From positions 1 to 39,387 of the forward strand of contig JBGATO010000033.1 in NCBI GenBank assembly GCA_044229145.1: a DNA stretch of 39,387 bases, in the 5' to 3' direction. Position 1 is the stretch's first letter. Each line of letters starts with the position of its first letter. A program made the translations under genes and the position numbers. The DNA is from Candidatus Eiseniibacteriota bacterium (GTDB lineage: Bacteria > Eisenbacteria > RBG-16-71-46 > CAZEPH01). This document shows positions 5,609 through 34,769 of this stretch, piece after piece. The notes beneath the pieces are model-generated. The model worked only from the letters and a program-made list of their open reading frames with translations. It was not told the DNA's origin and did no database searches.

Positions 5609-5725
5609 GCAAGGCTCGCGGACGAAGGGCGACGTGGCGTGTCTAGGGAAGCCCATGGACACGAACGTGTGACAGCATACCACTCCATCCGTCGCGAGTG
5701 AAAGTCTGGAGCTATGCGCCCTCGC

Positions 5726-13732: not shown

Positions 13733-13835
13733 CGCACCTCGATACCGTAGTCCGCGAGCGTACGGCACCTATGTCGCCGGAGGCCTGTAGACGTTGGCAG
13801 AAATCGCAACAATACGACAATTGCTGGAACGGCAA

Positions 13836-18543: not shown

Positions 18544-19068
18544 CTACCGGTACAAAGCCTTCACAGCTCCCCAACTGCGAAGCTTGACCGGCACTGCATC
18601 GAACGCGAGATCGCCGCAGGCGATGTCGGCGTGGTGGAGAATGGGCAGGATGCGGCCCTTCTGACCGCTCGCCGTGTCCATGTGCGAGGCGGCGTGCAGC
18701 ATTACGTGGTGCACGCCGGCGAGCAGCTCGGCGACTTGCTCCGGCGTGAGCTGCACGGTGCTGGTCTGCGCGCCGTCGCCGTCTGCGTCCGTACACACAG
18801 GTTCGAGGTCGAGCACTTCTGTGGTGTCCATGCTCGCGCAGTCGCCGGTGTGAACGTGAAGAGGCAGACACGCACTCGGGTCGGCTCCGGTGATCGTGAC
18901 GCTGGCGGTGAGCACGTTGTCGTCGCCGATGTGCAACGTGGCGTGACCGGTGAAGAACGGGTAGTCGTCGGACAACAGCGTGACGTTGCTGTCGTAGGAG
19001 GCAGCGGCTGCAACCGAGGCGGACAGCACGAGAGCGGCCGCGGCCGCGAAGGCGGTGACGAAACGCAT
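18544..19068 (-). CDS. Secreted CHRD-domain protein (174 aa)
   Basis: ATG preceded by AAGGAG at -11. Signal peptide MRFVTAFAAAAALVLSASVAAAAS. CHRD-like motifs LHVHTGDC ... VHHVMLHAASH ... GRILPIL (compare HIHxG ... YVNVHT ... GEIRGQI). Confidence 0.55.
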   Translation of the reverse strand: MRFVTAFAAAAALVLSASVAAAASYDSNVTLLSDDYPFFTGHATLHIGDDNVLTASVTITGADPSACLPLHVHTGDCASMDTTEVLDLEPVCTDADGDGAQTSTVQLTPEQVAELLAGVHHVMLHAASHMDTASGQKGRILPILHHADIACGDLAFDAVPVKLRSWGAVKALYR

Positions 19069-19430
19069 GGGGGCTCCTTTTCGCACGGTATGGGACGCCG
19101 CAGGGCGCGCGCGGGCGCGCGTCGACACGCAGCGGCGGACGAGAGACATGCGACGGTGCAGGAGTACACGGCGGTCGTGACGGGACCTCACGCACGGCGC
19201 GGGTGCCTGACGGCACCTCTGGAACGCCCGGGTCGCTGACGACACGCAGCGCGGCGCACACATCCTGTGAGGCGATGTGACGGCGCTCATCCGCCATGCG
19301 AGGTCGACGGTGCCGAACCTACGCGGTGCGCATGCCCTCAGGGCAGCGCCGCAGTCTCGAGGTCGGCACGCAAGGCCTCACGGCAGAACGTGTTTGCACG
19401 AATGTCGCGGGAATCGAGTGGCGAAAGGCG

Positions 19431-19841
19431 CTAGGCGGGAGGAGAGTGCGATGGGGCGAGGAGGTGGAGATCGCGGGTGAACGGCGCCACGTCCGCGACC
19501 ACCGGCAGGCGGTGCGCGGTGGGCGTCAACAGCGCGGCCAGGGAGGTGGCGGCCGAGGTGGCGTCTTGTTCGTCGCGCTCGCGCGAACACAACACGCACA
19601 CCGGCGCCGGCGCAGCCGACCGGACGACGACGCGGTGGCGCCATTGCGGCGTGCCGCCGCGCTCCGCCGCCTCGACGACCTCGTGGGCCTGGCAGAAGCA
19701 ATGGGTCGCCGAGAGTTGCGACGCACCGCGCGGGACCGCCCACGTTCCCGCCATCGACAGCACGTACAGCACGAGTGCCGCCCACGCCACGCAGGGGCGG
19801 GCGGACTGCGTGTGTCGACGTGCCAGCGAGTGCAGCGGCAT
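19431..19841 (-). CDS. Hypothetical small membrane protein (~136 aa) with an N-terminal TM helix and Cys pairs (HCFC ... CVLC)
   Basis: GC3 is ~88% in this frame versus ~78% in the overlapping plus frame. GAGGG lies 10 nt upstream of ATG (MPLHSLARRH...). No homology is recognisable. It lies in an otherwise gene-poor 1.1-kb island. Confidence 0.3.
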   Translation of the reverse strand: MPLHSLARRHTQSARPCVAWAALVLYVLSMAGTWAVPRGASQLSATHCFCQAHEVVEAAERGGTPQWRHRVVVRSAAPAPVCVLCSRERDEQDATSAATSLAALLTPTAHRLPVVADVAPFTRDLHLLAPSHSPPA

Positions 19842-20008
19842 GACGGGAGAACCCTCGGCGGGAAGACGCCTGCGAGCACGGGAATCGTGCAACGCCCCCA
19901 AAGCCTAGGGAGCCCGCGCGCCCCGCTTCAAGGAAATTCCACGCGAGAGCGCTCCTTTTAGACCATCGCGTCCACTGCGAAAGACGAACGGAGGCCGCTC
20001 CCATCGGC

Positions 20009-20058
20009 CTATATAAATAAAAGAAGGGCGACGGTCCGCTGGCGGCCCATCGCCCTTC
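20009..20058 (-). terminator. Rho-independent-type terminator for the minus-strand S8/CHAT transcription unit
   Basis: 9-bp stem GAAGGGCGA...TCGCCCTTC with a 17-nt loop. On the minus strand it is immediately followed by TTTTATTTATATAGG, the most AT-rich 15-mer in the window. Confidence 0.45.
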
Positions 20059-20428
20059 CCGAGGTTCACGGACGACAAAGGATGGCGGGACGGACTGACG
20101 CCCGTACACGCCAGGCAGAACGTCACGTCCAGACGATCCGAAGACCGCCCGGGTCCCGGCCACGATTCCCCACATCGAAGCCGGTACACGCGTCCGCGCC
20201 ATCCTGTGTCGTACCTGAGAGACTACGGCCAGGAGTAGCGCGGACCCGCGGAGTGATACATCGGGCGAGGCCTTTTTTTCATTCGCCGGCGACGGGCCGG
20301 GCCATCTCTGGCGAACCCATGCCGGCAGCGTCACGTGGGGGTGGAGCAGCACTGGCGCCACCGGGCGCCCACGCCGTGGGGCCGCGCTCCGCTGCGTGGT
20401 GGTGCGGTAACCGGAGGCGCCGCGCGAC

Positions 20429-21982
20429 TCAGCGGATGACGACGGCACGGCCGCGCGCGCGCGACACGCCATCGTCGATGATCCAGGTGTAGACACCGCT
20501 CGGCACGAGGCGGTCGCCGGCATCGCGCAGCGGCACCGTGTGCACGCTCGACGTCGCGGCGGACAACAGGCCGAGGCTGCGACGCACCACCGTGCGCCCG
20601 CGCACATCGAGCACGCGGCATTCGGCAGGCGCCGTGCGGTCGCTGGTGATGCGGAAGCGCAAGGCGTCGCGCACCCACGGTCCGGCAATCGCCTCGCAGG
20701 CGAAGCCGTGCGCCTCGGTCTCGTGCCGCTCGCCGGCCACCGCGCTGGTGGCGCCGAACATCGTCAACGCACCGTAGACGTCGAGGCGTCCGCTGCCCAA
20801 CTGCCCGGCGAATGCGGTGTTGCCCGGCAGCGCGTCGACGGCCACCGCGGACTGCTCGATGGCGGCCGCGATTTCGTCGCTGGTGCGGGCGGGAGCGAAC
20901 GCGTGCAGCAATGCCGCGGTGCCGGCGACGAACGGCGCCGCGAACGACGTACCGGCGCCCTGCGCGAAACCGCCGTCGCGATACGCCGAGTAGATCCCAA
21001 GCCCCGGCGCGCAGAGATTGGCACCGCTCGAATAATTGGCGAACGGCGCTTTGACGTCGAGGCTGTCGGTGGCGGTGACCGAGAACGCGTGCGTGCCGCG
21101 TGCCGGGAACTCGAGCACCGGCATCGAGTCGTTCCCCGCCGCCGCGATCACGAAGATGCCCTTCTCGTAGGCTTCCTCGATCGCATCCTCGATGCCTTCC
21201 GACTTGCCGCTCATCCCGAGCGAGAGGTTGATCACCGTCGCCTGCGCGTCGATCGCCTCGTAGAGACCCTTCATGATGGCGAACACCGAACCGATGCCCT
21301 CGTCGTCGAGCACGCGAATCGGCATGAGCGTGGCGGCCGGCGCGATACTGTGCACGATGCCCGCCACCATCGTGCCGTGTCCGGCGCCACCATCGACCTG
21401 TCCGTCCAGATTGTCGTCGAGGCCGTTGGCGTCGTCCTGCGGCGCGTCGTCGCCGTCGATGTAGTCGTGGCCGGGCACCAGCGTGCCGGCGAAGAACGGG
21501 TGCGTGAGATCCGCGCCGGTGTCGAGCAGCGCGACCTTGCTGCCGGTGCCCTGCGTCACCGTCAGCGCCAGCGGCAGACGCACGCGCGTGAACGCGCCTT
21601 GGTCACGCACCAGCGTGCTGTCGCCGATCGCGATCACCACGATTTGCCGCCGCGCCTCCGGCGTCTGATTGGCGAAGTTGTAGTCGCAGTAGCGCGAGTC
21701 GGTATCGCCGTCGAGGTCGACGGTCATGCTGTCCTGCAGCGCCGGCGAGTTGAGATGGAGCAGGTAGAGGCGGCGGCTGGGAATCGAGTCGACCACCGTG
21801 GCGTCCCACGTGGCGAGCAACATGGGGAGTGAACCGCCCGAGGTGAGCCGGATGAGGACTTCGTCGACAGGATAGTCGTCGGCGCCCGAGGCGCGCGCCG
21901 GCGAGGCGGCGGCGAGTCCCAGGAAGGCAAGCACGGGTAGGAGGCGCGCGAGGCCGCGCGCGAGCACGTGTCGTCGGGTCAT
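20429..21982 (-). CDS. Secreted S8 (subtilisin-family) serine peptidase with C-terminal FlgD-Ig-like/T9SS-type domain
   Basis: Start at MTRRHVLARGLARLLPVLAFLGLAAASPARASG, with GAGGAGA 6 nt upstream. The ORF-track start at 22843 is an R/S-rich extension. Catalytic triad in canonical D-H-S order: VALLDTGADLTHP / GHGTMVAGIV / GTSFAAPFVAGTAALL. The C-terminus ends SGVYTWIIDDGVSRARGRAVVIR. Confidence 0.8.
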   Translation of the reverse strand: MTRRHVLARGLARLLPVLAFLGLAAASPARASGADDYPVDEVLIRLTSGGSLPMLLATWDATVVDSIPSRRLYLLHLNSPALQDSMTVDLDGDTDSRYCDYNFANQTPEARRQIVVIAIGDSTLVRDQGAFTRVRLPLALTVTQGTGSKVALLDTGADLTHPFFAGTLVPGHDYIDGDDAPQDDANGLDDNLDGQVDGGAGHGTMVAGIVHSIAPAATLMPIRVLDDEGIGSVFAIMKGLYEAIDAQATVINLSLGMSGKSEGIEDAIEEAYEKGIFVIAAAGNDSMPVLEFPARGTHAFSVTATDSLDVKAPFANYSSGANLCAPGLGIYSAYRDGGFAQGAGTSFAAPFVAGTAALLHAFAPARTSDEIAAAIEQSAVAVDALPGNTAFAGQLGSGRLDVYGALTMFGATSAVAGERHETEAHGFACEAIAGPWVRDALRFRITSDRTAPAECRVLDVRGRTVVRRSLGLLSAATSSVHTVPLRDAGDRLVPSGVYTWIIDDGVSRARGRAVVIR

Positions 21983-22115
21983 GATGGTCTCCTCAGAGAG
22001 TATACCCGACGCGGGTTCGGACCCGACAGCCGCCAGGCGGTCCACTGCGTCAGGTGCACCAGGGGAGAGGACGTGGCGGCGAGGTCGGGTCCCCGCCGGT
22101 CGCGTGCGTGTGCGG

Positions 22116-25027
22116 TCATACGACGGCTCCGGGCGCGCCGAGGAAGCTGAACGGTGCCCAGAAGTACGGGTGCGCGTGGGTGGCGCGCACCGCGAGCGCG
22201 GCGTGGCGCAGCGCATCGTCGGCATCGTCGCCGGCGGCGAGGTGACGGTGGAGGTCGCCGGCCAGCGTCGCCGCCGCCGGGTCGTCCACCGGCCACAGCG
22301 AGACGATGAGCCGCCGCGCGCCGCGCGCCAGGAAGCCGCCCGCCAGCCCGAGCACATCGTCGCCGGCGTAGTGGCGGCCGGCGCCGGTTTCGCAGCCCGA
22401 CAGCACGACGAGCTCCGCGTCCAGCGACAGGCCGAGGATCTCGTACAGCGAGACCCAGCGGTCGGCGAACTTGAGCGCGGAGAACAGGGGATTGTCGTCA
22501 CGGAAGCGTCCGTGGGTGGCCAGGTGCAAGAGCCGCGCCTCCGGCGCGTCGCGCAGGAACGCCTCGGCCGTCCACTGCGGCGCGGTGCGCGGTTTCGCGC
22601 TGCGCCACGCCTCGGCGACGGCGTGCAGCTCGGCGGCGATCTGCGGCGCGTGCCGGTCCGCGGCGCCGCCGATCCATGCATCGCGCCGCCGCGACGCGCG
22701 CCTCTCGCGGAGCGCGGCGAACGCGCTGGCGCTCGGCACCGCGGTGACGCGCTGTGTCTCCCATAGCGCGTGCCCTGCGTGCTCGAACGCGCCGAACGGC
22801 AAGCGATGCAGTGGCCCGTGCGGCACGACGACGAGACGGCCATCCTCCGGCAGCGCGCCGAGCGGGGCGATGAGCGCGTCGAACGCCTCGCCGAGCGGCG
22901 CGCGCGCGCTGGCCGCCAGCCGCGCCGCGTGCGTCGCGAGTGCCGCGCCGCCCAAGCGCACGGTGTCGATTTGGAAGGCGAGACGCGCGGCCAGACGCTC
23001 TGCGTCGTGCAGCGTGCACGGCAACTCGATCAACTCGCGGTGGCGGCGATCCGCGCGCACCGCGTGCAGCCGGTCACGCACCGCGAAGTACTCGATCAGG
23101 ACTTCGCCCTCGTGCAACGTGCGCTGCACCTCGGCGAGCGTCCGCACCGGCGCGCCACCGCGCGCGCGTCCCGACGGCGCTTCCTCGCGGGCACGGCGAT
23201 GCAATGTGCCGACCTCGCGCTCCTGCGCGGCCACCCGCGCGCGCAACGTGCGCAGCTGTTCGGTGGACGGTGCGCTCTCCAATTCCTCGCGTTCGAGCCG
23301 CGCGGTGAACCACGCGAGCTTGCGCGTCGCGGCGGCGAGCGCGCGCGTGCCGCGCGCGGGCGGCTGCGCGGCGTCGTCGAGCAAATCGCCGAGCGCGCGC
23401 GCCCGCGCGCCCTCGATCCACGCGAAGGCCCGTGCAGTCGCGCGCGGCGATCGGCCGCCGTCGAGCACCAACGCGACGGCGCGCTCGGCGGCCTGCGCGC
23501 GGTAGGCGCCGAGCGCGTGCTTGTGTTCTTCGCCAGCGAGCGAGGCGCGGATCGTTTCGGCCAATCCGGTGGCGCGTAGGCACCGAGCGCGTGCTTGTGT
23601 TCTTCGCCGGCGAGCGAGGCGCGGATCGTCTCGGCCAATCCGGTGGCGCGCGTGTACGACGCCAGCGCGCGCGCGGCATCGCCGTCGGCCTCGTGGACGC
23701 GCCCGCGCAGCACCGTGCGCTCGAAGTCGGCGACGCGATCCGGCAGCCGCGCCGCGCCGCGCAGGAGCGCGCGGGCCTCGCGCGTGTCGCCGGCATCGAG
23801 CGCGAGTTCGCCGCGCAAGATGCGCGCGTGCGCGGCGCGCGTCGACAGGCCGCGGGCGCGCAGTGCGGCCTCGGCATCGGCGGCACGCGCGCGCGCGGCG
23901 TCGAAGTCGCCGTCCGCCGCGTCGAGACGCGCCAAGTGCACGTCGAGCGCCGCCACGCGCACGTGATTGCCTTCGGCGTGGAGGAACGTGCGCGCGGATT
24001 CCAACGCCTCGCGTGCCTCCGCGTGTGCGCCGGCGCGCTTGAGCGCCACCCCGAGCAGCGTGCGCGCGAGCGCCGCGTCGTAGCGCATGCCCGCCCGCTC
24101 GAAATGCGTCAGCGCCGCGCGCGCCGCGCGCTCGGCGTCGTCGGTCATGTTGAGACGCAGGTAGATTTCGGCGCGCGTCTGTTCGGCGATCGCCGCGAGC
24201 GACTTGTCTTCGGCGTCGAACACGCGGCCGGCGCGCGCGATGGCCGCGAGCGCATCCTGATAGCGCGACTGCAGCGCGTACACGGTCGCGAGGTCGAACT
24301 CGCCCTGCGCGGCAAGCGACCGCCAGCCCATCTCGCCGGCACGCGCGACGGCGGCGCGCAACAAACGCTCCGCCTGCTCCATCGCGTCGAGATTGGTGGC
24401 GACGACGCCTTCGTTGATCTCGAGGCCGACCACCACCGCGTCGCGGCCGCCGACCGCGGTGAGTTCGCGGCGGGCGCGCGCGTAGTAGCGCTTCGCCTCG
24501 GCATAGCGATCCATCGTGAAGCACAGGTTGCCGAGGTTCATGTAGAGGCGGCCGAGATAGGTGCGTTCGCGGTGACGGCGCAGCACGATCTCGGTGCGGC
24601 GGCCGAGCGCCATCGCTTCGTCGAAACGCGAGAGGTACATGAGCGTCGGGATCTCGCCGACGCTGACGCGCGCGGACTCGAGGTCGTCGCCGGTTTCGGC
24701 GTAGAGCCGCACGGTTTCGCGGTAGGTGTCGAGCGCCTCAGCGTAGCGGCCGAGGAAGAGCAGCGACTCGGCCTGCGCGCGCGAGGCCAGCGCGGCGGCG
24801 CGGCCGTCGCCGACGCGTGACTGCAACTTCGCCATGACGCGGGCCACGCGCAGGGCGCGCCGCGCATCGACGCGCACCAGGCGCTGCACGGCGTCGCCGA
24901 GCGCGCGGAAGGTGGCGAACGTGACCCGTGCCGGAGCGGCCGCGACGCATGCGCGAATGCTCCCCCGCTCGGCGATGCGGAGGAGCGATTCGGCCAGCGT
25001 GTCTGTGGCGGAAGCTCGTCGGGGCAT
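22116..25027 (-). pseudogene. TPR-repeat / CHAT-domain (caspase-like) protein gene, reading frame interrupted by a 74-bp tandem duplication. The N-terminal TPR part lies in frame 23576..25027 and the C-terminal CHAT part in frame 22116..23575.
   Basis: N-terminal TPR-like helical repeats (YAEALDTYRETVRLYAETGD, YAEAKRYYARARREL, ...). C-terminal CHAT core ...LLHLATHGRF...VVLSGCETGAG... holds the His/Cys dyad. The two ORF-track ORFs 23096..25027 and 22116..24524 both translate TRATGLAETIRASLAGEEHKHALGAY across the duplicated unit. Deleting one 74-bp copy restores a single ~945-aa ORF. Confidence 0.6.
23502..23649. repeat. 74-bp tandem duplication (2 copies, 71/74 identical) inside the CHAT gene
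   Basis: Copy 1 (23502..23575): gtaggcgccgagcgcgtgcttgtgttcttcgccagcgagcgaggcgcggatcgtttcggccaatccggtggcgc. Copy 2 (23576..23649) differs at 3 positions (g/a, a/g, t/c). All three differences are synonymous in the CHAT frame. 74 is not a multiple of 3. Confidence 0.8.
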
Positions 25028-25090
25028 GGGGTGTCGGCTCCGCCCGGCGGCGCGGGGTCCGTCGCCGGGCTCAGGGACGTCGCGGAGGCG

Positions 25091-25726
25091 CTAGGGCAGC
25101 TCCAAGCCGGGCAACGTCACCTCGGCGCCGGCGGTGCCGACGACGATGGAGTACCGGCCAGGGCCGACCGCGTCGAAGGAGAATTCGCCGGTGGCGTTCG
25201 ACATCGCATCCCTGCCTGCGCCGCCATCGGGGCACAACCGGACGGGCACTTCCTCGACGTGACCATCGGCGGCGAGGATCTGGCCCATCACATCGTACGC
25301 CGCGCGCGTCGTGCCGCGGCTGATGCGCACCGTGTAGCGGTCGTCGTCCCACTCGTAGACGAGCTGGCGGACCGGCGCGACCGCGGCGCTGCGCACACCG
25401 GCCAATGCCGGTGTCGCGCCGGAGTCGAGCAACAACGAGGCGATACGCGCGGCCACCGCTTCGACCTGGGCCACCACCTCGCGCACCGTGTCGGCGCGGC
25501 GGGCGGCGCGCAGACGGCCGAGCGCCGCCTTCACCGTCGCGGCGGGCACCTCGGTCAGTGCGTCACGGCGCAGCAGGGCGAGGCTGTCCCGCACCCGGGC
25601 CGCCGCCGCGTCGCAATCCGCGCAGCCGGGCGACAGATGCGCCGTCACCGCCGCGTGAACCGCCGCGTCCGCCGTGCCGTCGAGGAACGACACCAACTCG
25701 TCTGCTGTCGGGTGCAACCGGCCCAT
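25091..25726 (-). CDS. Anti-sigma factor, ZAS type (HxxxCxxC zinc motif), with C-terminal carboxypeptidase-regulatory-like beta domain
   Basis: ATG preceded by AGGAGG at -12. The GTG at 25765 given by the ORF track is rejected. AHLSPGCADCD is the ZAS signature. C-terminal GEFSFDAVGPGRYSIVVG. Confidence 0.7.
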   Translation of the reverse strand: MGRLHPTADELVSFLDGTADAAVHAAVTAHLSPGCADCDAAAARVRDSLALLRRDALTEVPAATVKAALGRLRAARRADTVREVVAQVEAVAARIASLLLDSGATPALAGVRSAAVAPVRQLVYEWDDDRYTVRISRGTTRAAYDVMGQILAADGHVEEVPVRLCPDGGAGRDAMSNATGEFSFDAVGPGRYSIVVGTAGAEVTLPGLELP

Positions 25727-25829
25727 GAGCGGGACCTCCTGCCGAATCGGAACGTTGGGGCGCACCGTGCGCCGGAGAAGTGTTGCGCCGCGTCAGCCGG
25801 GTGATACATCGCCGGTTAGCGCCGCCGGG

Positions 25830-26411
25830 TCAGCGCTCGTAGCCGCGCAGTTCGAGCGCCGCGCGCAGCGATTCCAGGCAGCGCGCGCGCGTCGGCCCAA
25901 TCGACCCGATGGGGATGCCGAGCTGCTCCACGACGTCCTGATAGGCGAGCGGGGGATCGGCGATATAGAGCGCCCGCAGCAGGTCGCGGCAGCGCGGCCG
26001 GATGTCGTCGAGCGCTTCGTGCAACAGCTGACCGCGTTGGAGCGCCTCCAGAACGTCTGACGCAAGTGCAGTAACATCAACGACTTCCGAGCCAGTGTCG
26101 GGGTCGTCGAGGGTCACTTCCGGGCGGCGCTTCCGCATGTAATAGAGCGCCTGCCGCCGTGACACGCTGACCAGCCACGGCACCAGCCGCGATACGTCGC
26201 GCAGTGTCCCGAGCTTCTCGTACAGGGCGACCACCGTGAGCTGGAACACCTCGTCCGCGTCGCCGTACGCGCAGCCCGATTTCAAGATGCTGGAATACAA
26301 GAGGTTACCGTAGCGGCGCAGGAACTCGCCCCACGCCGCGTTCTGGCCGTCGAGGCAGGCAGCGACGAGATCTTCCACCGACGACTGTGGGGCGATGGGC
26401 GCGTGGGTCAT
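25830..26411 (-). CDS. ECF (group IV) RNA polymerase sigma-70 factor
   Basis: 193 aa. Region 2 FQLTVVALYEKLGTLRDVSRLVPWLVSVSRRQALYYMRKR. Region 4 ...ALYIADPPLAYQDVVEQLGIPIGSIGPTRARCLESLRAAL is the HTH. It is followed by the anti-sigma gene on the same strand. Confidence 0.85.
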   Translation of the reverse strand: MTHAPIAPQSSVEDLVAACLDGQNAAWGEFLRRYGNLLYSSILKSGCAYGDADEVFQLTVVALYEKLGTLRDVSRLVPWLVSVSRRQALYYMRKRRPEVTLDDPDTGSEVVDVTALASDVLEALQRGQLLHEALDDIRPRCRDLLRALYIADPPLAYQDVVEQLGIPIGSIGPTRARCLESLRAALELRGYER

Positions 26412-26624
26412 GGGACCGGACACTGTCTCCGAAGGCTGACGAATGGCGTCGAGTATCGCAGTCGCCCGGCGCCCGCGGCAATGCTCCAGCCCAACCACCG
26501 GGGCAATCCCCGCCCGCCGGGCGTCGCCCGCGGGGCGAAAGTGCGTGAAACTGGCCCGGCCTTGCGCCAAGATCGGGCGGTTGCCCCGGGGCGGGGCGGC
26601 CACATGGACGGGAGGAGCGAGCGG

Positions 26625-27743
26625 ATGCGACGTGCGGTGCGACGGTGGGCGTGGGGATGCGCGGGTCTGCTGCTGGCGATGGCGCCGGCGGCGCGGGCGC
26701 AGGTGTCGCACGAGGAATTGAACGCGCGGATGCCGTTCGCGCTCGGCGGCTCGCTCGCCGTGGATCTCTATGAGCCGTACACCGTCTACGCGAACTCCGT
26801 CCCGCTCCGCGGCGTCATGCGCCTGCACGCGCTCACGCTGACCGCCGACAAGGACGGCGAGTGGGGCGGCGCCCACGCCGAACTACGCGCCCGCGACGCC
26901 AAGCCGCGCAGGTTCTACTCTAGCAACGTGTGGCTCGAGGAAGCCTATCTCTACGGCCGTCTCGGACAGTCGGTGTTCAAGGCCGGTTCCGTGAAGCACC
27001 AGATCGGTCTGCCCGACGAGACGCTCTACGGCACCATCCTCGAACACGACGGCATCTCCAACGACGCCGACTATGGCATCAGCGCCGAAGGCACGGTGCG
27101 CTACGGTGACCACCTCACCTTCACCCGGGCGCTCCAGTACTTCATCAGCGAGAACGGGATCAACCGCGCGTTCGACGACAGCTTGGGCGTCTGGAAGCGG
27201 GATGGCGAGAGCTCGCAGTCGGCGCACGAGCAGCGCGGCTGGTTCCTGCGCGCGGCGCCCGAATGGACGCGCGGGAATCTTGCCGTCGCACCCGGAGTCA
27301 CCGCGTCGACGCAGCGCGTCGAGTTGGATCGGGGAGGCAGCGTGCGCGAGCCGCACGAAACCGTGATGTGGGGCGGCGATCTCCGGGTGCGCGCCGGCCA
27401 CGGCATGCGCCGCGTGCAGGTGGCCGCGCAGGTCCTCGGCCGCAATGCGCGCGGCTGGGCGGAGTACGATTGGCGGGCCGTGCCGTTCACCTACGCCAAC
27501 GTCCGCTACACCGACGCCAGCCTCACGCTCGGCTCCGACGCGGCGTGGCTGCGCTACGGCTACGCGCGCAAGACGTTCCGGCGCGCCGGCACGCACGAGG
27601 CGCAGCACCAGATCGGCCTGCACATTCCGATGGGGAAGACCGCGTCGCTGGCTGGCGAATACGTGATCTACCGGCAGTTCACGCCGTCGACGCGCACCAC
27701 GCTCGAGCGCGCGCTGCTGCTGCGCGCCACCGCAGGCTTCTAA
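26625..27743 (+). CDS. Outer-membrane beta-barrel (porin-like) protein, first gene of the porin/permease/ATPase unit
   Basis: ATG preceded by GGGAGGAG. Signal peptide MRRAVRRWAWGCAGLLLAMAPAARAQ. C-terminal ...LLRATAGF ends in an aromatic. The body has alternating-polarity strands rich in Y/W/G. Confidence 0.55.
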   Translation: MRRAVRRWAWGCAGLLLAMAPAARAQVSHEELNARMPFALGGSLAVDLYEPYTVYANSVPLRGVMRLHALTLTADKDGEWGGAHAELRARDAKPRRFYSSNVWLEEAYLYGRLGQSVFKAGSVKHQIGLPDETLYGTILEHDGISNDADYGISAEGTVRYGDHLTFTRALQYFISENGINRAFDDSLGVWKRDGESSQSAHEQRGWFLRAAPEWTRGNLAVAPGVTASTQRVELDRGGSVREPHETVMWGGDLRVRAGHGMRRVQVAAQVLGRNARGWAEYDWRAVPFTYANVRYTDASLTLGSDAAWLRYGYARKTFRRAGTHEAQHQIGLHIPMGKTASLAGEYVIYRQFTPSTRTTLERALLLRATAGF

Positions 27744-27753
27744 CCGCACGACG

Positions 27754-28689
27754 ATGGCGAGCGTCCGCCCGATCCCCGCGCTGTGGACGACGCCGCAGGT
27801 GCGCGCGTTCCGCGACGGCTCGCCGGCATTCGGCGTCGCGCTCGCGGCGCCGTTCCTGACGCTGTGGATCGCGCTGTTCGCCTTGCCGCTGGCGTGGGCC
27901 GCGTGGGAGTCGCGGCAGGTGCCGGGCGGCGCGTTGGCGCGCTTCACCGTCCACCTGTGGCCCGGTGTGCCGGTGGCGGGGGGCGTGCTCGATGCCGGAT
28001 TCGGCATCGTCGCGATTACCGCCGTGGCGATGACGCTTGGTGTGTGCGCGGGCGTCCCGGCTGCCTATGGCGCGGCGCGGCACCGGTTCGCGGGTGCGCG
28101 TGGCGTCGCGGTGGCGGCGTTGCTGCCGCTCGCGGTGCCGACGCCGGTACTCGCGGTGGTGCTGAGCGCGGCGTTGCGGCTGCGCGGTTTCCAGTGGCCG
28201 GCGTGGATCGCGGCGGCGGCGCTGGCGAACGTCGCGCTCGTGGTCTGGTGCACGCGCGCGGCGCTGCGGCACGCCGCGTTGCGGCCGCTCGAGGATGCGG
28301 CGGCGGCATGCGGCCTGACGCCGGCCGCGCGTTTCGTCGAGATCGCCTTGCCGACGCTGGCGCCGCCGCTCGGCGCGGCGCTGGTGGCGACGGCCGCGTT
28401 GACGGCGAGCGAACTCGCGCTCGCCACCGCGCTCGGGCACGCGTGGGCGACGGCGTTCGCCGAGGCCGCGCGCGCGCTGCAGCTTGCCGGACCGTCGGCG
28501 GTGCCGCCGGCCGGTGTGCCGGCCGCGGCGGCGGTGCGCGGGAGCGCCGCGTTCGCGCTGCACGCCCCGCCGGTGTGGACGGTGGGGCTGGCGCTCGCCA
28601 CGCCGGCGGCGTTGCGCCTCCTGTGCGTCGCCGCGTGGGCGCGGCAGGCGCGCCGCGCACCGGCGGCGACGCCGTGGGGGATCGTCTGA
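27754..28689 (+). CDS. ABC transporter permease (binding-protein-dependent CysT/ModB-like inner-membrane component)
   Basis: Multiple TM helices. EAA-loop motif EDAAAACGLTPAARFVEIALPTLAPP (compare EEAAxxLGASxWQxFxxVxLP). The stop overlaps the next start (TGATG). Confidence 0.75.
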   Translation: MASVRPIPALWTTPQVRAFRDGSPAFGVALAAPFLTLWIALFALPLAWAAWESRQVPGGALARFTVHLWPGVPVAGGVLDAGFGIVAITAVAMTLGVCAGVPAAYGAARHRFAGARGVAVAALLPLAVPTPVLAVVLSAALRLRGFQWPAWIAAAALANVALVVWCTRAALRHAALRPLEDAAAACGLTPAARFVEIALPTLAPPLGAALVATAALTASELALATALGHAWATAFAEAARALQLAGPSAVPPAGVPAAAAVRGSAAFALHAPPVWTVGLALATPAALRLLCVAAWARQARRAPAATPWGIV

Positions 28690-29825
28690 TGCTGCAACTC
28701 GTGCACGTCACGGTGGGCGCGCCCGGCGCGCCGGTGGTCGACGACGTCAACTTGCTCGTCGCCCCCGCGTACGTCTGCGGCTTGGTCGGCCCGGCCGGCT
28801 CCGGCAAGAGCATGTTGCTGCGCGCCATCGTCGGGCTCGAACCGCTGACCGCCGGCAAGGTGCTGTTCGAGCGCGACGACCTCACGCCGCTGGCGCCGGA
28901 GGTGCGTCCGGTGAGCGCTGCGTTGTGGCCGCCGGTGCTGTTCCCGCACTTGAGCGTCGAGGAGAACGTCGCCTTCGCGCTGCCCGGCCACGCGCTGTCC
29001 GCGCACGAACGCGACGAGCGCATTCGCCCGGTGCTGGCGGAACTCGGGCTCGAGCGATTGCGCGAACGCGTGCCGTCGACGCTGAGCGCGACGGAGGCCG
29101 CGACGGTGGCAGTGGCGCGCGCAATGGTGCGCGAGGCGCCGGTGCTCTTGCTCGACGATCCATGGTGCATGCGCGCGCCGCGCGATCGCGAACGGCTCGC
29201 CCGCGCACTCTACCGCTGGGCCGAGGAGAAGCACTGCGCCGTGCTCTACGCCACCGCCGACGTGCAGGGCGCGCTCGGCGTCACCGATCAGATCGCGGTG
29301 CTGCGCGACGGCCGCCTCGAACAAGACGGCGAACCACGCGAGGTGGTGCGCACGCCGGCCAGCGAGTTCGTCGCGACGTACGTCGCCGATGCCGTCGTGT
29401 GCGATGCGACGTTGCGGCCGTTGCCGCGCGGCGGTTGGCGCATCGAACTGCCGTTCGGCGACCTACAGGCCGACACGCTCGACGGTGCCGAGCGCCTCAC
29501 CCGCCACGCCGTGGTGCGCGTCGCCGTGCGTCCCGACGCCGTCACGCTCGCCGGCCCGCGCGAAACCGCCGACGCCGCCGGCTTCATCCGCGACTATGAT
29601 TTCGCCGGCGATCACTGGCGCGCCCAAGTCGAAGTCGCCGAGGGCTTCTGCGTGCCGGTGCGCCTGCCGCTGGCGATCGATCCGGCGATTGGCGCGGAGT
29701 TGCGGCTGCGGCTGCACGCCGATGGTCTCGCGGTGGTCGGCCGCGAAGCCAGCGAGCCCGAGCTGCCGCCAAACGTCATTCCGCTGCCGATGGAACGCTG
29801 GCGCGCCCCGCGCCGCGAGTCGTAG
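28689..29825 (+). CDS. ABC transporter ATP-binding subunit with a TOBE-like C-terminal domain. The nucleotide-binding domain is catalytically degenerate: only Walker A is canonical.
   Basis: Walker A GPAGSGKS is intact. Q-loop Gln is replaced (VSAALWPPVLFPHLSV versus VGFVFQHYALF). Signature LSATEAATVAVARAM instead of LSGGQ. Walker B VLLLDDPW, so the catalytic Glu becomes Asp. D-loop MRA instead of ALD. H-loop YATAD, so His becomes Ala. Confidence 0.8.
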   Translation: MLQLVHVTVGAPGAPVVDDVNLLVAPAYVCGLVGPAGSGKSMLLRAIVGLEPLTAGKVLFERDDLTPLAPEVRPVSAALWPPVLFPHLSVEENVAFALPGHALSAHERDERIRPVLAELGLERLRERVPSTLSATEAATVAVARAMVREAPVLLLDDPWCMRAPRDRERLARALYRWAEEKHCAVLYATADVQGALGVTDQIAVLRDGRLEQDGEPREVVRTPASEFVATYVADAVVCDATLRPLPRGGWRIELPFGDLQADTLDGAERLTRHAVVRVAVRPDAVTLAGPRETADAAGFIRDYDFAGDHWRAQVEVAEGFCVPVRLPLAIDPAIGAELRLRLHADGLAVVGREASEPELPPNVIPLPMERWRAPRRES

Positions 29826-29887: not shown

Positions 29888-32406
29888 ATGCTCCCGCGCC
29901 CCGTGATCCTGCGCTGTGCCGCGCTCGCCCTCTGCCTGTGGTCCTCGAACTCCCACGCCGCGTGGCGCGATGACCTCGTGCGTCCCGGACTCGACCAGCC
30001 GGCCGATCGTCTGGTCGCCTATCGCGGCGGCGTCGTCGCGGCGGGCGACTTCACGCACGCTGACGGCCAGCCGGTGCCGCACCTCGCGTGGTGGAAGGAC
30101 GGACGCTGGCGGACGCTCGGCGGCGGCTGGTCGTTCGTGGGGGCGAGTTCCACCACGTCGTGGGCGTGGCAGGTGCGACGCATGGTGGTGTGGCACGACG
30201 AACTCGTGCTCGCCGGCAACTTCGCCTTGCGCACCGCCGAGGGCGACACGTTGCAATCCCTGGCGGCATTCGACGGCACGCGCTGGCACGGCCTCGGCGT
30301 GCTGAGCGCGCCGCCGCTCACCGGCGCGATCCCGCCGAGCGACACCCTCTACTACGCACTCGACCGCGAGATCTTCGACGCCTGCGTGTGGGGCGATAGG
30401 TTGGTGGTGGGCGGCCGCGACATCGTGCTCGCGGCCGACACGCTACCGGAGCGCCTCGCGGCGTGGGACGGCGCGCGGTGGACGGCGCTCGCGCTGCCGG
30501 ACGATGTCGGCTACGCGGTCGGTCTCGCCGCGACATCGCGCGAACTCGGCGTGATGTGCGGATATGCCTACGGCTCCAGCGCCGGCGACGCGACACTCGT
30601 GACGCTGGACGGCGCGGGCGCGCATCGCGTCGCGCCTCGCATGTGGTACGCCTCGCAGCCCGTCGCCTACCACGATTCTCTCTGGTGTGCCAGCGAGCAG
30701 CAGGTCGAGTTCCACGGCCCGTACATCACCGTCCTCCACCGCCTGGGCGCGAGCGGCCTCGATAGCGTGGCTTTCGTGTCGCAATCCCTCGGCACGCCTT
30801 CTCTCTTCGCCCTCCACGACCGCTTGGTGCTCGGCGGCGGCTTCTACGGGCCGGCCAGTTGTGCGTCGTGCGCGGCGTTCCCTCGCGCGCTCGCGTGGAG
30901 CGCCGCCGGCCTCGCGCCATTTCCGCCGAGCGGCTTCGAGGTGGATCTCGAACATCGCGGCGGCGTTCTGGACGCCGACGGGCACGTGTTCGTCGCGGGC
31001 GGTCAGTTGTCGCTGCGCGGCGACGTCTTCTTCGGCGAACTGCAGGGCGGCGACATCGTCATGGCGACGGCGGTGCCGGGTGGCGCCGGCCGGGGATCGC
31101 CGGTGCTCGCGCTGCACGCCACCGCGGAGCGCCTGTGGGCGGGCGAACTCGGGCACGCGACGTGGTGGGACGGCGCCGGATGGCGGTTCGCCAGGGGCGC
31201 TCCGGCGCCGGGCAGCGCCACGATGGCCAGCACGGAGGCGCCCACGGCGCGCGGCATGGTGCACGCTTTCGACGACGGCAGCGTGGTGCGCAGCACCGCA
31301 TGGCCCGCGACCGCCTCGGGCGACGGCGTGCGCGACGACGCGGAGTACGCCGCGTTCGATGACGCAGGTCGCGGTTGGTGCCGCTCGATCCGCGCGGCGC
31401 GGTGTGGCGCCAGGGCGGCGCTTCATCGGCGCTCGGCGGCCGCTCGCGCCTCACGGCAGGCGGCGGCGTGCGCTTGGGCAGCGTCGCAGTGTGGCGCGAC
31501 GGCCGGGTCGATCCGCTCGGCGGCGGCATGGAGGCGGACGGCGGCGCGCATCCGTGGGTCGCGGCGCTCGTCGCGCGGCACGACACGCTGATCGCCGGCG
31601 GCTGGTTTGCGCGCGCCGGTGGCGTCGCGGCGCACGGCATCGCGCGGTGGGACGGCGCGGCGTGGCATCCGCTCGGCAGCGGCGTCGCAGGTGACAGCGC
31701 GCGCGTCGAGGCCTTGCTCGACTGGCGCGGCGGGCTGGTGGCGGCGGGCGCGTTCGCGAGCGCCGGCGGCGTGGCCGCGGCGAACATCGCGGTGTGGGAC
31801 GGACGCGGCTGGTCGCCGCTCGGCGCCGGCTTCGACGGTCCGGTGTACGCGCTCACCGAATACCGCGGCGAAGTGATCGCCGCCGGCGATTTCACGCACA
31901 GCGGCGCGACGCCGGTGCGCGGCGTGGCGCGCTGGCGCGGCGGCGCGTGGCTTGCGCTCGACGACGCGGGCGGCGGCGTCAGCGGCGGCGCGGTGCGCGC
32001 GCTCGCCACCTGGCGCGGCGCGCTGTGGCTGGGCGGTGAGTTCACCGCCGTCGTCGACCACGAGGCCGCGCAGCTCTCGAGCTACATCGCGCGCTGGCGC
32101 GACGACGATCTCGCCGGCGACGACCTGCCGCCACGCCGCGCGCCACGCATCGTCGCGCTGAGCGGCCTGCCGACGCAGCGCATCTCGCGCGTCACCTACG
32201 ACCTGCCACAAGCCGGCATCGTGCGCATCGCGCTCTACGACATCGCGGGGCGACGGGCGCACGAGATCGCCCACGCGTTCCAATCGCCCGGCCCGCACAC
32301 CGCCGAGTGGCGCGCCGACGCGGCGGGGCTCACCTCCGGCGTCTATCGCCTGGTGATCGACGCGGACGGCATGCAGACGGCACGCGCCGTGGTGGTGGTG
32401 CGATGA
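29888..32406 (+). CDS. Secreted beta-propeller-like repeat protein (repeats of the ...AGGxFxxAGGVAAxxIAxWDGxxWxxLGxG type) with C-terminal FlgD-Ig-like/T9SS-type domain. Probable 1-nt frameshift near 31378.
   Basis: Signal peptide MLPRPVILRCAALALCLWSSNSHA. The repeat pattern continues seamlessly from the frame of ORF 29888..31591 (...AAFDDAGRGW) into the frame of ORF 31375..32406 (VPLDPRGAVW...) if one nucleotide is added at ggttgg|tgccg. The 29888 frame turns into R/A-rich junk until its stop at 31591. The C-terminus ends SGVYRLVIDADGMQTARAVVVVR. Confidence 0.6.
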
Positions 32407-34769
32407 GGGCGCGCAGGGCGATCGCCGCGTGTGTCATCGCCGCGGGCGCGTGCGCCGCCGCCGCGCAGGCGGCGCCGCGCTGGGAGCCGGTGCTCGACGA
32501 TCCGGTGCCGGTGAGCCGCTTCAGGGATGGCACGGTGCTGCGCGACACGCTGTACGTGTGCGGTCCGTTCGACCACGTCGCGGGCGGCGAGAGCGGGCCG
32601 GTGGCGGCATTCGACGGTGTGCGGTGGTCGGGCGCCGCGCGCGGTCTGCCACCGAGCGCGATTGGGCTCGGCGTGTGGCGGGACGACCTCGTGGTGGCGG
32701 TGCCGGTTGCGCACGGCGATTCGACGCAAATCTGGCGCCGCGCCGCTGGCGCGTGGACGCCGCTCGGCGGCGCGTTGCCCGGCTACATCGCGACGCTTGC
32801 CGCAGTCGGCGACACGCTCTATGCCGGCGGCCGCGCGCCCGCGGGGTTCCGCGCGATGCCGCCACTCGCGCTTCATGCGTGGACCGGCGCGGCGTGGGCG
32901 CCACGCGGCGGCGACCTCACCGGCGACGTCCGCGCGATCGCCTCGTTCCACGACCACCTCTACATTGCGGGATCGCTCGGCGGCCCCGAGGGCTTCGAAA
33001 CCGCCGGCGTCGCGCGCCGTGACGGCGCCACCTGGACGCTCGAACCCGGCCTGGTCGAAGGCCGCGCGCTCGCGGTGGCCGACGGGCGCCTCTGGTTGCT
33101 GGGCGAACTCTTGCTCGACGCGTCCGAGTACGCACCGGCCGATCTGGTGACGAGCACCGACGGCTCGACGTGGCAGGGCGCTGGCCTCGAAACCGTTCGT
33201 TACTGGGGCATCGAGCTTCCCCCACCGCGCGGCGGTCTCGTCGCGCTGCACGACACACTCGTCGCGTGGCTGCCGAGCGGTGTGGCGATGCGCCCGCCGC
33301 ACGGTGCGTGGCGCTCGCTCGCCGCGCATCAGTCGAACTCCGACCGCCAGGTCCTCGCCGCGCTGCGCGGCCAGATCCTGCTCGGGTCGATCATGGCCGG
33401 CGGCGCGTACGTGACGTTGGCGCGGCTGCGGTGGCCCGCCGGCGATGGCGGCGCACAGCCCGAGCCGGTGTCCGAACTGCCCGCGTCATTCCACGGCGCG
33501 CCGTTGTGCGGACTCGCCGTGCACGACGGCCTGCTGTTTTACGAAACGATGTACGGCGGCTCCGGCGCGTTCGACGGCCGGCGCCGCGTGATAGAGTCCA
33601 CACGCCCCATCGGCACGTTCTACGGATTGCGCGGCACGCTCGCCGAGATCGCGGGCGACCTCTACGCCGCGCGCCGCGTGTCCAGCGACGAAGACGATGG
33701 CCACGTCTCCGATGCCGGAATCTGGCGCGCCGGCGACGACGGCGACGCGCCCGATTGGCGCCTGCTGCCGCACACACCCACCGAGCCGCCGCTGCGCGGC
33801 TACGTCAACGACTTCGCCGGATGGAATGGCGGCGTGGCAGCCGGTGGCGCGATCTGGATCGGCCCGCGCGGCGACGCCGCGGTCGCCTGGCACGATGCCA
33901 CCGGCTGGCACGCGCTCGGCGGCGGCTTCGGCGACAGCTTCAACGCAAGCGTCTACGCGCTCGCCGTCTATCGTGGCGACCTCTACGCCGGCGGGCGCTT
34001 CACCTCCATCGGCGGCACGCCGCGCGCCGGCATCGCACGCTGGGACGGCGTTGCATGGCAGGACGTCGGCGGCGGCATCGACGGCGATGTCGAAGTCCTG
34101 CACGTCTTTGGCGATCGCCTGATTGCTGGCGGACGATTCAGCACGGCCGGCGGCGCGCCCGCGTCCAGCATCGCCGCGTGGGACGGCGCACGATGGTCGA
34201 CGCTCCCCGGCGGCACGCTCAGCGGCCGCGTGTGGGCGCTCGCCGACTTCGACGGCGACCTCATCGCCGGCGGCAGCATGCAGCTGGCCACGCCGCGCGA
34301 CACCACGCTCGGCATCGCCCGCTTCCACGACGGCGCGTGGCGGAGCATGGGCGGAGGCCTCAACGGCTCGGTGCGCGCGCTGGCGGTCTATGGCTCCGCG
34401 CTCTATGCCGGCGGCGAGTTCACCGACTCCCAAGCCAACGTCGACGGCGTGCTGCGGCGATGGACCGCGGACGGCGGCATCGCGGACGGCTTCACGCCGT
34501 CGCTGCGCGCGTCGGGCGACATGTCGCTGCGTGGCGCGGTGCGCGTCGCGTACTTCCTGCCACGTCCGGCGCAGACGCGCGTCCGCGTGTGCGATGTGCG
34601 TGGCCGCGTCGTCGCCACGCTCGACGACGGCAGGCGCGACACCGGGCAGCACACGGTGGAATGGGATCCACGCACGCAGGTAGGAGGTCCGCCTGCGTCC
34701 GGCGTCTACTCGATCGTCTTGTCCGCCGAAGGACGCACGTGGGCGCGCCGCGTGGTGTGGATGCGATGA
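32403..34769 (+). CDS. Secreted beta-propeller-like repeat protein, paralogue of the preceding gene, with C-terminal FlgD-Ig-like/T9SS-type domain
   Basis: The ATG overlaps the upstream stop (ATGA). Signal peptide MRARRAIAACVIAAGACAAAAQAAP. Repeats GGRFTSIGGTPRAGIARWDGVAWQDVGGG / GGRFSTAGGAPASSIAAWDGARWSTLPGG. The C-terminus ends SGVYSIVLSAEGRTWARRVVWMR. Confidence 0.75.
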   Translation: MRARRAIAACVIAAGACAAAAQAAPRWEPVLDDPVPVSRFRDGTVLRDTLYVCGPFDHVAGGESGPVAAFDGVRWSGAARGLPPSAIGLGVWRDDLVVAVPVAHGDSTQIWRRAAGAWTPLGGALPGYIATLAAVGDTLYAGGRAPAGFRAMPPLALHAWTGAAWAPRGGDLTGDVRAIASFHDHLYIAGSLGGPEGFETAGVARRDGATWTLEPGLVEGRALAVADGRLWLLGELLLDASEYAPADLVTSTDGSTWQGAGLETVRYWGIELPPPRGGLVALHDTLVAWLPSGVAMRPPHGAWRSLAAHQSNSDRQVLAALRGQILLGSIMAGGAYVTLARLRWPAGDGGAQPEPVSELPASFHGAPLCGLAVHDGLLFYETMYGGSGAFDGRRRVIESTRPIGTFYGLRGTLAEIAGDLYAARRVSSDEDDGHVSDAGIWRAGDDGDAPDWRLLPHTPTEPPLRGYVNDFAGWNGGVAAGGAIWIGPRGDAAVAWHDATGWHALGGGFGDSFNASVYALAVYRGDLYAGGRFTSIGGTPRAGIARWDGVAWQDVGGGIDGDVEVLHVFGDRLIAGGRFSTAGGAPASSIAAWDGARWSTLPGGTLSGRVWALADFDGDLIAGGSMQLATPRDTTLGIARFHDGAWRSMGGGLNGSVRALAVYGSALYAGGEFTDSQANVDGVLRRWTADGGIADGFTPSLRASGDMSLRGAVRVAYFLPRPAQTRVRVCDVRGRVVATLDDGRRDTGQHTVEWDPRTQVGGPPASGVYSIVLSAEGRTWARRVVWMR

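Follow-up and report, generated by a model that had tools for sequence, protein, structure and literature searches.

A widespread four-gene module in which a TPR-CHAT protease and an exported subtilase accompany an ECF sigma factor and its anti-sigma candidate: a possible protease-operated transcription switch

Release of a sigma factor through proteolysis by a TPR-CHAT protein is so far known only from type III-E CRISPR systems (Craspase), where the TPR-CHAT protein Csx29 cleaves Csx30, which binds and inhibits an ECF-like (extracytoplasmic function-like) sigma factor (PMC10028731). The same principle was proposed for DdvA, in which a zinc-binding anti-sigma (ZAS) domain is joined by a membrane helix to a periplasmic TPR-CHAT part that was proposed to cleave its own polypeptide; outside Myxococcota, DdvA-like proteins were reported from a single Comamonas only (PMC11506125). 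Among the proteases of type III-B systems are CalpL, whose substrate is the anti-sigma-like CalpT, and PCaspase, which cuts its own inhibitor as well as a putative sigma factor (bioRxiv 10.1101/2023.06.23.546230). Here, a minus-strand unit of four genes is described, which lies within positions 20,009 to 26,411 of contig JBGATO010000033.1 of a Candidatus Eiseniibacteriota bacterium (39,387 nt, this whole stretch being called the window) and encodes an ECF sigma factor, an anti-sigma candidate, a TPR-CHAT protease and an exported subtilase of family S8. The arrangement was not described in the literature searched, which yielded CRISPR-linked and DdvA papers only; a passing mention in ECF group descriptions is possible, and the main text of the ECF reclassification paper does not mention CHAT.

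Long spurious open reading frames (ORFs) abound at the ~70% G+C of the window, hence coding frames were chosen by third-position GC content (GC3). The four genes run head to tail on the minus strand in the order sigma, anti-sigma candidate, TPR-CHAT and S8, each with a Shine-Dalgarno site (GGAG before the sigma ATG at 26411, AGGAGG before the anti-sigma ATG at 25726). The original prediction, made from the letters of the window, had read four consecutive minus-strand genes with short gaps, and this is what was found, the gaps being 103, 63 and 133 nt. The following features of the unit are referred to below:

25830..26411, minus strand: ECF (group IV) sigma factor, 193 aa, with matches to TIGR02937 and Sigma70_r2
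25091..25726, minus strand: soluble ZAS-like anti-sigma candidate, 211 aa, with a helical N-domain, a disordered linker and an Ig-like beta-sandwich, according to the family profile and an AlphaFold2 (AF2) model
25613..25639, minus strand: zinc-motif region HLSPGCADC (H30, C35, C38) of the anti-sigma candidate; a fourth candidate ligand, H5, is encoded at 25712-25714
25391..25441, minus strand: conserved linker motif ASLLLDSGATPALAGVR, residues 96-112 of the anti-sigma candidate, a candidate protease recognition or cleavage site proposed from conservation in 28 family members
22116..25027, minus strand: TPR-CHAT protease gene (separase/Craspase-type), with CHAT and TPR matches, interrupted as assembled and encoding 945 aa after repair
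23502..23649, no strand: 74-nt tandem duplication, two copies with 3 mismatches, which frameshifts the TPR-CHAT gene
22509..22526, minus strand: CHAT catalytic His motif HLATHG, both His invariant in 13 and in 19 aligned members
22383..22403, minus strand: CHAT catalytic Cys motif LSGCETG, Cys invariant in 13 and in 19 aligned members
20429..21982, minus strand: exported subtilase (S8), 517 aa, with a signal peptide, a pro-domain-like N-terminus, a catalytic domain (PF00082) and a C-terminal Ig-like tail

These four genes are one copy of a widespread, unannotated four-component module. Each of seven contigs with CHAT orthologues at 78, 60, 51, 50, 35, 35 and 31% identity has genes for the same four proteins, and three further contigs (L092-L094) also carry the complete set. 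For a broader survey, the CHAT alignment was scanned against one genome per GTDB species, which gave 80 loci, and the six-frame ORFs of these loci were searched with hidden Markov models (HMMs) from eight module members. Taken together, 35 distinct loci hold the complete set: the window, L001-L003, L005-L008, L092-L094 and 25 from the genome scan. About ten others are truncated at contig ends or miss one of the genes (L021, L029, L032). The sigma, anti-sigma and S8 families lie within 6 kb of CHAT in almost all full-length relatives. The module occurs in at least five phyla: complete copies were found in Acidobacteriota, Planctomycetota, Armatimonadota, Ignavibacteriales and unclassified metagenome-assembled genomes, and a truncated Eisenbacteria contig holds part of one. 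The order sigma, anti-sigma, CHAT, S8 is shared by the window, Phycisphaerales, Planctomycetales, Planctomycetia, Armatimonas, Ignavibacteriales and Chloracidobacterium; most Acidobacteriota have sigma, CHAT, anti-sigma, S8, sometimes with a second S8 gene, and L006 has CHAT, anti-sigma, S8, sigma. Among 44 loci of other CHAT families (Syntrophales, Burkholderiales and others), none had the three partners at module-level scores.

Conservation of the neighbourhood had been set beforehand as a check on the prediction, and it was strongly passed, with three gene orders in several phyla. The core idea of the prediction, a regulated proteolytic or signalling module, holds. Chance adjacency of the four genes was considered and rejected, as dozens of genomes share the set. 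One assembly, GCA_974428315.1, contains two diverged copies of the module (L092 and L094, CHAT proteins ~52% identical to that of the window); in L094, a 1584-aa S8 protein with a FlgD_ig / Por_Secre_tail tail is encoded divergently upstream.

The first gene encodes the ECF sigma factor that had been predicted. TIGR02937 matches residues 26-186 with 62.1 bits (cut-off 42.9), Sigma70_r2 matches with E 2.4e-7 and 30.9 bits (cut-off 24), and the protein consists of the sigma2 and sigma4 regions only, above the HMM cut-off, as in ECF (group IV) factors.

The reading we favour, with confidence somewhat short of even, is that the TPR-CHAT protein cleaves the anti-sigma factor and thus frees the sigma factor, which would make the module a protease-operated transcription switch. 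The soluble anti-sigma factor would hold the ECF sigma factor inactive in the cytoplasm. Binding of a protein or peptide ligand, the supposed signal, to the TPR array of the cytoplasmic TPR-CHAT protein would open the protease gate, and the activated CHAT domain would cut the anti-sigma factor within the conserved linker, which is predicted to be disordered; the most plausible site is the invariant Arg of GVR. Sigma would be released by this cleavage, and the exported subtilase would be the conserved output within the putative regulon. In the original prediction, CHAT had been placed under the control of the sigma/anti-sigma pair. The precedents point in the opposite direction, and the protease more likely acts on the anti-sigma factor because of the examples of Csx29 and DdvA and because the disordered linker with its invariant Arg is conserved.

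After repair of the duplication, the TPR-CHAT protein matches CHAT (PF12770) with E 3.3e-52 and 178 bits, and also TPR_12 and TPR_1/2/8. The PF12770 domain and the intact catalytic His-Cys dyad place it among the CHAT proteases of clan CD. Its N-terminus is polar, and neither a signal peptide nor a transmembrane (TM) segment was found in the protein; the predicted compartment is the cytoplasm. In the AF2 model of a 78%-identical orthologue (P0001, pLDDT 87.8), paired TPR-like helices extend through residue ~470 and are followed by a helical region to ~590 and then by CHAT. The best matches of this model in the Protein Data Bank (PDB) were Csx29 (8eey_B, E 3.7e-16), then separase, then DdvA (8rot_A, E 5.8e-11).

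The 211-aa protein is likely a ZAS-like anti-sigma factor, as judged by family-level homology. A homologue search with the single sequence gave six proteins only. The family profile matched the anti-sigma factors RslA (3hug_B), ChrR (2q1z_B) and RsiW (5wuq_C) in the PDB at E 2-7e-4. For the family count, an N-terminal-only profile was used, since the full-length profile (HMMER) was swamped by giant proteins with CarboxypepD_reg-like repeats. It retrieved at least 318 clusters of 200-230-aa proteins, of which nearly all named matches are labelled 'hypothetical protein'. An anti-sigma gene is accompanied by a sigma gene in all 35 complete loci, and sigma binding is a prediction. Neither a signal peptide nor a TM segment was found in the window protein. 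Its AF2 model (mean pLDDT 68, both domains ~80) has five N-terminal helices (8-16, 21-31, 36-56, 62-74, 78-99), the first three of which form the segment aligning to the solved anti-sigma domains, and an eight-stranded beta-sandwich at 119-210. A carboxypeptidase-regulatory-like C-terminus had been predicted for this protein; five of the eight orthologues match CarboxypepD_reg (best E 7.7e-9), whereas the window copy stays with 25.5 bits below the Pfam cut-off of 32.3.

Between the two domains, residues 94-119 are modelled with low confidence (pLDDT <50) and predicted to be disordered. This linker contains the best-conserved non-zinc feature of the family, L..DS...P...GVR, in alignments of 39 and of 28 members; in the 28 diverse members, conservation reaches at least 90% at D101 and S102, and R112 never varies. 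Separase cleaves after an Arg in a disordered motif, and by this analogy R112 is a plausible P1 residue of the proposed cleavage.

The residues H30, C35 and C38 do not vary in the alignment of 8 orthologues and reach at least 90% conservation among 28 members, and an H or C is conserved at position 5. Such ligands would also suit a conventional ZAS switch, in which the anti-sigma factor itself senses, through thiol/zinc chemistry as in RsrA, RslA and ChrR or through a ligand of its beta-sandwich, and in which TPR-CHAT and S8 are co-transcribed outputs. We consider this alternative unlikely. In its favour, the H/C-H-C-C ligands are conserved in most members, the family is homologous to ChrR, RslA and RsiW, and the CHAT and S8 genes of several loci overlap or directly adjoin and are hence co-transcribed there. 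ChrR, a soluble anti-sigma factor, has a C-terminal cupin sensor domain and thus provides a precedent for a C-terminal sensor. Against it, the zinc ligands have been lost from the anti-sigma N-termini of L023 and L031 (Phycisphaerales) and L038 (Planctomycetales). L023 is a 3.8-kb contig, but L031 and L038 keep all four genes; therefore the zinc site is not essential to the module and thiol/zinc chemistry is unlikely as the conserved control step. Moreover, apart from the zinc site, conservation is strongest in a disordered linker whose Arg is invariant, a pattern typical of processing or docking sites, a TPR sensor-protease of ~950 aa would be odd as a passive output, and TPR-CHAT proteins are repeatedly tied to anti-sigma factors elsewhere, fusions included (PMC11506125).

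Associations of this kind were also seen in the scanned loci. In L069 (2914-7035) and L072 (2581-6828), from Gemmatimonadaceae/Gemmatimonadales, DdvA-like fusions of ZAS motifs, a TM helix and TPR-CHAT directly follow a weak sigma-like match (E 6e-5 to 7e-5). In L085 (2969-7122), L088 (956-4866) and L084 (3620-7526), which are Gemmatimonadaceae loci and one Polyangiaceae locus, a sigma gene is present and a membrane ZAS anti-sigma factor is followed by a separate, periplasmic type of TPR-CHAT protein whose N-terminus resembles a signal peptide. TPR-CHAT proteins and anti-sigma factors are thus associated repeatedly, and in several different architectures.

A different substrate is also conceivable: CHAT might act on sigma itself or on the S8 precursor before its export, and the 211-aa protein might be an adaptor or inhibitor of the protease. 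In type III-B, PCaspase cuts both the sigma factor PCc-sigma and an inhibitor of its own (bioRxiv 10.1101/2023.06.23.546230), the beta-sandwich could serve to bind the protease, and the window's 211-aa protein fails the zf-HC2 HMM. However, the family-level anti-sigma match covers the zinc-ligand segment, the ligands are conserved, and the 211-aa gene is always paired with an ECF sigma gene. We therefore see little prospect for this reading.

The fourth gene encodes a Peptidase_S8 protein (PF00082, E 1e-39, 137 bits) with an intact Asp-His-Ser triad in the motifs LLDTGAD (21509-21529), GHGTMVAG (21359-21382) and GTSFAAP (20933-20953). A Fervidolysin N-pro-like match (E 0.0017) is under the cut-off. 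All 8 orthologues examined have a hydrophobic N-terminus or signal peptide, and L008 has a lipobox. The original prediction of an S8 protease with a tail of the type IX secretion system (T9SS) was right as to the protease, but its tail matched neither TIGR04183 nor FlgD_ig in the window copy (no match at E ≤ 1). Orthologous tails scored 26.5 (L005), 20.9 (L003) and 17.7 bits (L007) with TIGR04183 (cut-off 23), and the window tail can be aligned with the TIGR04183-positive tail of L005. The T9SS-type label of the window tail is thus supported by homology only.

Beside many modules lie genes of peptide importers:

L010 1-5235, with equivalents in L011-L019, L022, L026, L030, L032, L042, L049 and L086, usually same strand: Opp/Dpp-type importer genes directly upstream of the module
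L005 3435-5309, L093 443-2311 and L006 2-1087, usually same strand: further Opp/Dpp-type importer genes directly upstream of the module

SBP_bac_5 and/or Opp-like permease genes adjoin at least 20 of 43 module loci, compared with 0 of 44 controls. In Terriglobia, a complete Opp/Dpp-type importer stands upstream of the module on the same strand; in L010 the order is ABC ATPase, OppB-like, OppC-like, SBP_bac_5, sigma (after a 14-nt gap), CHAT, anti-sigma, S8 and S8, with an M28 aminopeptidase beyond. An M28 aminopeptidase gene was found downstream of the module in 5 loci, and in L006 the SBP gene runs into the CHAT gene. Because Opp/Dpp-type importers share an operon with the module in many genomes, we also considered, as a speculation, that the subtilase may generate peptides which are imported and act back on the TPR sensor. 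In its full form, which we think quite unlikely, the module would be a self-contained sensor of extracellular proteolysis: peptides made by S8 would be imported by Opp/Dpp and bound by the TPR array, similar to the binding of imported peptides by RRNPP receptors, the protease would destroy the anti-sigma factor, and a positive loop for protein feeding or peptide-based cell-cell signalling would result. As a corollary, the TPR-CHAT/anti-sigma/ECF-sigma axis would have its ancestral, housekeeping form in this CRISPR-free module, and type III-E systems and DdvA would have recruited the axis for defence later.

Several observations weigh against the protease-operated switch and its extension to peptides. 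Both the cutting of the anti-sigma factor by CHAT and its binding to sigma are steps which we infer. The profile searches suggested with the prediction gave matches to CHAT (PF12770), TPR, sigma and Peptidase_S8 models, but the window's anti-sigma protein did not match zf-HC2 (PF13490) even at E ≤ 5. The zinc anti-sigma factor that had been expected is thus backed by the matches of its family to anti-sigma domains, including zf-HC2 matches of five of the eight orthologues (best 1.2e-4), and not by the window protein itself, in which, as in most members, the spacing is H-x4-C-x2-C; the canonical H-x3-C-x2-C occurs in L006 and L007. The S8 protein does not share the compartment of the other three, and its role would be indirect at best. 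Most of the importer link comes from a single phylum, with 18 Acidobacteriota loci; the other cases are L005/L093 and L006. The 18 loci probably reflect one ancestral arrangement, the independent associations between importer and module are few, perhaps three, and the ABC system next to the module in the window has no SBP_bac_5.

The promoter search adds to these points. An ECF-type promoter was not found, and footprinting in the window's clade gave only a housekeeping-like extended -10 element:

26452..26460, minus strand: extended -10-like element TGCGATACT upstream of sigma, kept in the window and L001, a candidate housekeeping-type promoter

The strict pattern TGnTAnnnT occurs upstream of sigma, or of TusA-sigma, in five of eight clade members (L003, L005, L092, L093, L094) versus 0.23 expected, with near-matches in the window, L001 and L002; these elements stand out against the GC-rich intergenic background. 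In L003, L004 and L092, a small TusA-like gene precedes sigma and overlaps its start. The top de novo bipartite motifs upstream of 37 sigma genes, TGGGA-N19-ATGC and TGGAAC-N15-TGGC, were discarded, as they are coding sequence of the conserved upstream SBP_bac_5 gene and not promoters. The promoter data support neither autoregulation nor sigma-dependent expression of S8. The extended -10-like element would be compatible with a switch that is made constitutively and gated post-translationally.

Finally, the TPR-CHAT gene is broken as assembled, with the TPR half in ORF 23096-25027 and the CHAT half in ORF 22116-24524, so that the predicted TPR+CHAT protein of ~945 aa has the correct domains but does not exist as a single ORF. 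The two copies of the 74-nt duplication (23502-23575 and 23576-23649) are 96% identical, and deletion of either restores the same protein of exactly 945 aa; the orthologues are single-copy and uninterrupted, with 949-996 aa and 49-78% identity. Taken at face value, the duplication and the lack of an intact ORF could mean that the module is a decaying relic here, truly frameshifted and with no current function in this organism. This has only a slim chance of being correct. All three mismatches between the copies are synonymous third-position transitions in the native frame, which would happen by chance in ~1.8% of cases and is expected when strain alleles are joined. In addition, both halves keep coding-type GC3 and every catalytic residue, and the other three genes are intact. 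The duplication is probably an assembly artefact joining two strain haplotypes, because the mismatches look like two strain alleles of a gene under selection.

The described relatives suggest yet another function, namely an anti-phage or abortive-infection module akin to Craspase, CalpL-CalpT-CalpS and SAVED-CHAT, in which a phage protein would be sensed and sigma freed for a defensive or suicidal programme. All characterised CHAT/Lon systems acting on sigma inhibitors or sigma factors are linked to defence (PMC10028731, PMC11506125, bioRxiv 10.1101/2023.06.23.546230), and PADLOC weakly matched CHAT to BovA and S8 to subtilase/IetS models. On the other hand, these were generic domain matches of the proteases, sigma and anti-sigma were unmatched, and no defence match at system level was obtained. 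No CRISPR array was found in the window, and no Cas, CBASS or other defence gene among the ORFs scanned in the window and the inspected flanks. S8 is exported, and the genes around the module serve metabolism or transport and keep a stable synteny within Terriglobia, unlike mobile defence islands. A defence function is accordingly held to be very improbable.

Downstream of S8, two non-coding features were found:

20009..20060, minus strand: hairpin (stem-loop 20021-20060) with a U-tract (20009-20020), resembling an intrinsic terminator, minimum free energy -32.5 kcal/mol, z -2.87
20068..20241, minus strand: conserved structured non-coding block of ~170 nt, 85% identical to L001 8180-8353, a candidate non-coding RNA or leader

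The unit had been predicted to end at this terminator. The hairpin and U-tract are real, as read directly from the sequence (a simple consensus terminator scan did not list them), but they lie 365 nt beyond the S8 stop at 20429 and past the structured block. The hairpin may therefore belong to a separate conserved RNA element and not be the operon terminator. The region 20015-20260, which contains the block, has a fold z-score of -5.0, and the block is 85% identical to its counterpart in L001 versus only 52% (aa) for the neighbouring small protein. It was found in two loci only (the window and L001). Rfam gave no match at the gathering threshold or at E ≤ 10, and the most conserved 20-mer of the block hit 3 loci in a metagenome scan, which share the 20-mer alone. 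The block may be a small RNA, a 3' untranslated element or a terminator-controlled leader of the downstream genes, and its membership in the module is uncertain. Beyond it on the minus strand lie a small membrane protein (19431-19901) with the motifs HCFCQAH and CVLCSRERDE and no Pfam family, 52% identical to L001 (8584-8994), and a CHRD-domain protein (18544-19290), 71% identical to L001 (9394-9915). Both the Cys/His-rich membrane protein and the CHRD gene may be targets controlled by the non-coding element.

On the other side, plus-strand genes occupy ~26600-29825, divergently from sigma. The first encodes a protein with a signal peptide and a terminal Phe, outside any Pfam family, which may be an outer-membrane barrel; an ABC permease (BPD_transp_1) and an ABC ATPase follow. 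The signal-peptide protein and the permease are conserved in L001. The window further encodes large secreted proteins at 3089-5683 (minus), 7961-11224 (plus), 11303-13768 (minus) and 32307-34769 (plus). Their domains are FG-GAP repeats, CARDB/fn3 and a C25 gingipain-like peptidase with propeptide, one protein having no other domain match, and all four end in FlgD_ig or weak TIGR04183-like tails. A link between the unit and this surrounding T9SS-type cargo cluster had been raised in the original prediction; it is not conserved, and the cluster was rejected as a part of the unit, since the flanks vary between relatives.

If the proposed switch is correct, a version free of CRISPR and of membrane anchoring would make this control logic a general bacterial signalling device with a natural trigger other than RNA. 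It would assign a function to at least 318 protein clusters labelled 'hypothetical protein', and it would link a bacterial relative of the caspases to the control of secreted proteases and to peptide uptake in abundant soil bacteria. Sigma, anti-sigma and protease form a simple three-protein system for studying the activation and the substrates of TPR-CHAT proteins.

The arrangement had at first been regarded as impossible to place among characterised systems. It can be placed beside Craspase, DdvA-DdvS and CalpL-CalpT-CalpS, while being a member of none. With Craspase it shares a cytoplasmic, monomer-type TPR-CHAT protein encoded with an ECF-like sigma factor and a small sigma inhibitor. Proteolysis of the inhibitor is the activating step there and is proposed to be so here, and the modelled protease resembles Csx29 most closely in structure. 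In contrast to Craspase, no Cas7-11/gRAMP or Csx31 was present among the ORFs scanned, no CRISPR array was found in the window, the inhibitor is of ZAS type with an Ig-like domain and not Csx30, the activator cannot be a target RNA, and a secreted S8 protein is an obligate partner. The Csx29 model NF041237, the sole specific NCBIfam match of the window's TPR-CHAT protein, is hit over the CHAT core only and with 52.7 bits versus a cut-off of 300, hence the protein falls outside that family.

In DdvA-DdvS of Myxococcus xanthus, likewise, an ECF sigma factor is paired with a ZAS-type domain tied to TPR-CHAT, and CHAT-mediated cleavage of the anti-sigma part is the proposed trigger (PMC11506125, PMC6061681). 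However, DdvA spans the membrane as a single polypeptide, its TPR-CHAT part is periplasmic and dimeric, and it depends on intramembrane proteolysis by RseP, whereas two genes with a 63-nt gap encode separate, soluble cytoplasmic proteins with no hydrophobic segment here. DdvS controls a CBASS/CRISPR island, of which no genes were seen among the ORFs scanned, and DdvA has no S8 partner. In CalpL-CalpT-CalpS and SAVED-CHAT, too, the sigma arm is the target of a protease, with a known or proposed transcriptional response, but those proteases are activated by cyclic oligoadenylate via SAVED and are linked to CRISPR or CBASS, while the module described here has a TPR sensor and no nucleotide-signalling genes.

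The pairs ChrR-RpoE, RsrA-SigR and RslA-SigL have a helical N-terminal anti-sigma domain with a zinc site of the H/C...H-x3-C-x2-C type, which the candidate domain and putative zinc site of the module resemble, and like the module they have a sigma gene next door. They differ from it in that its spacing is mostly H-x4-C-x2-C with ligands dispensable in some lineages, and in that it has a C-terminal Ig-like beta-sandwich and two obligatorily co-encoded proteases. Separase and securin offer a TPR-like helical array with a CHAT/caspase fold, but belong to another kingdom and have other substrates, and serve as an analogy for specificity only. In sum, the module would work like the sigma arm of Craspase and like DdvA-DdvS, but belongs to neither.

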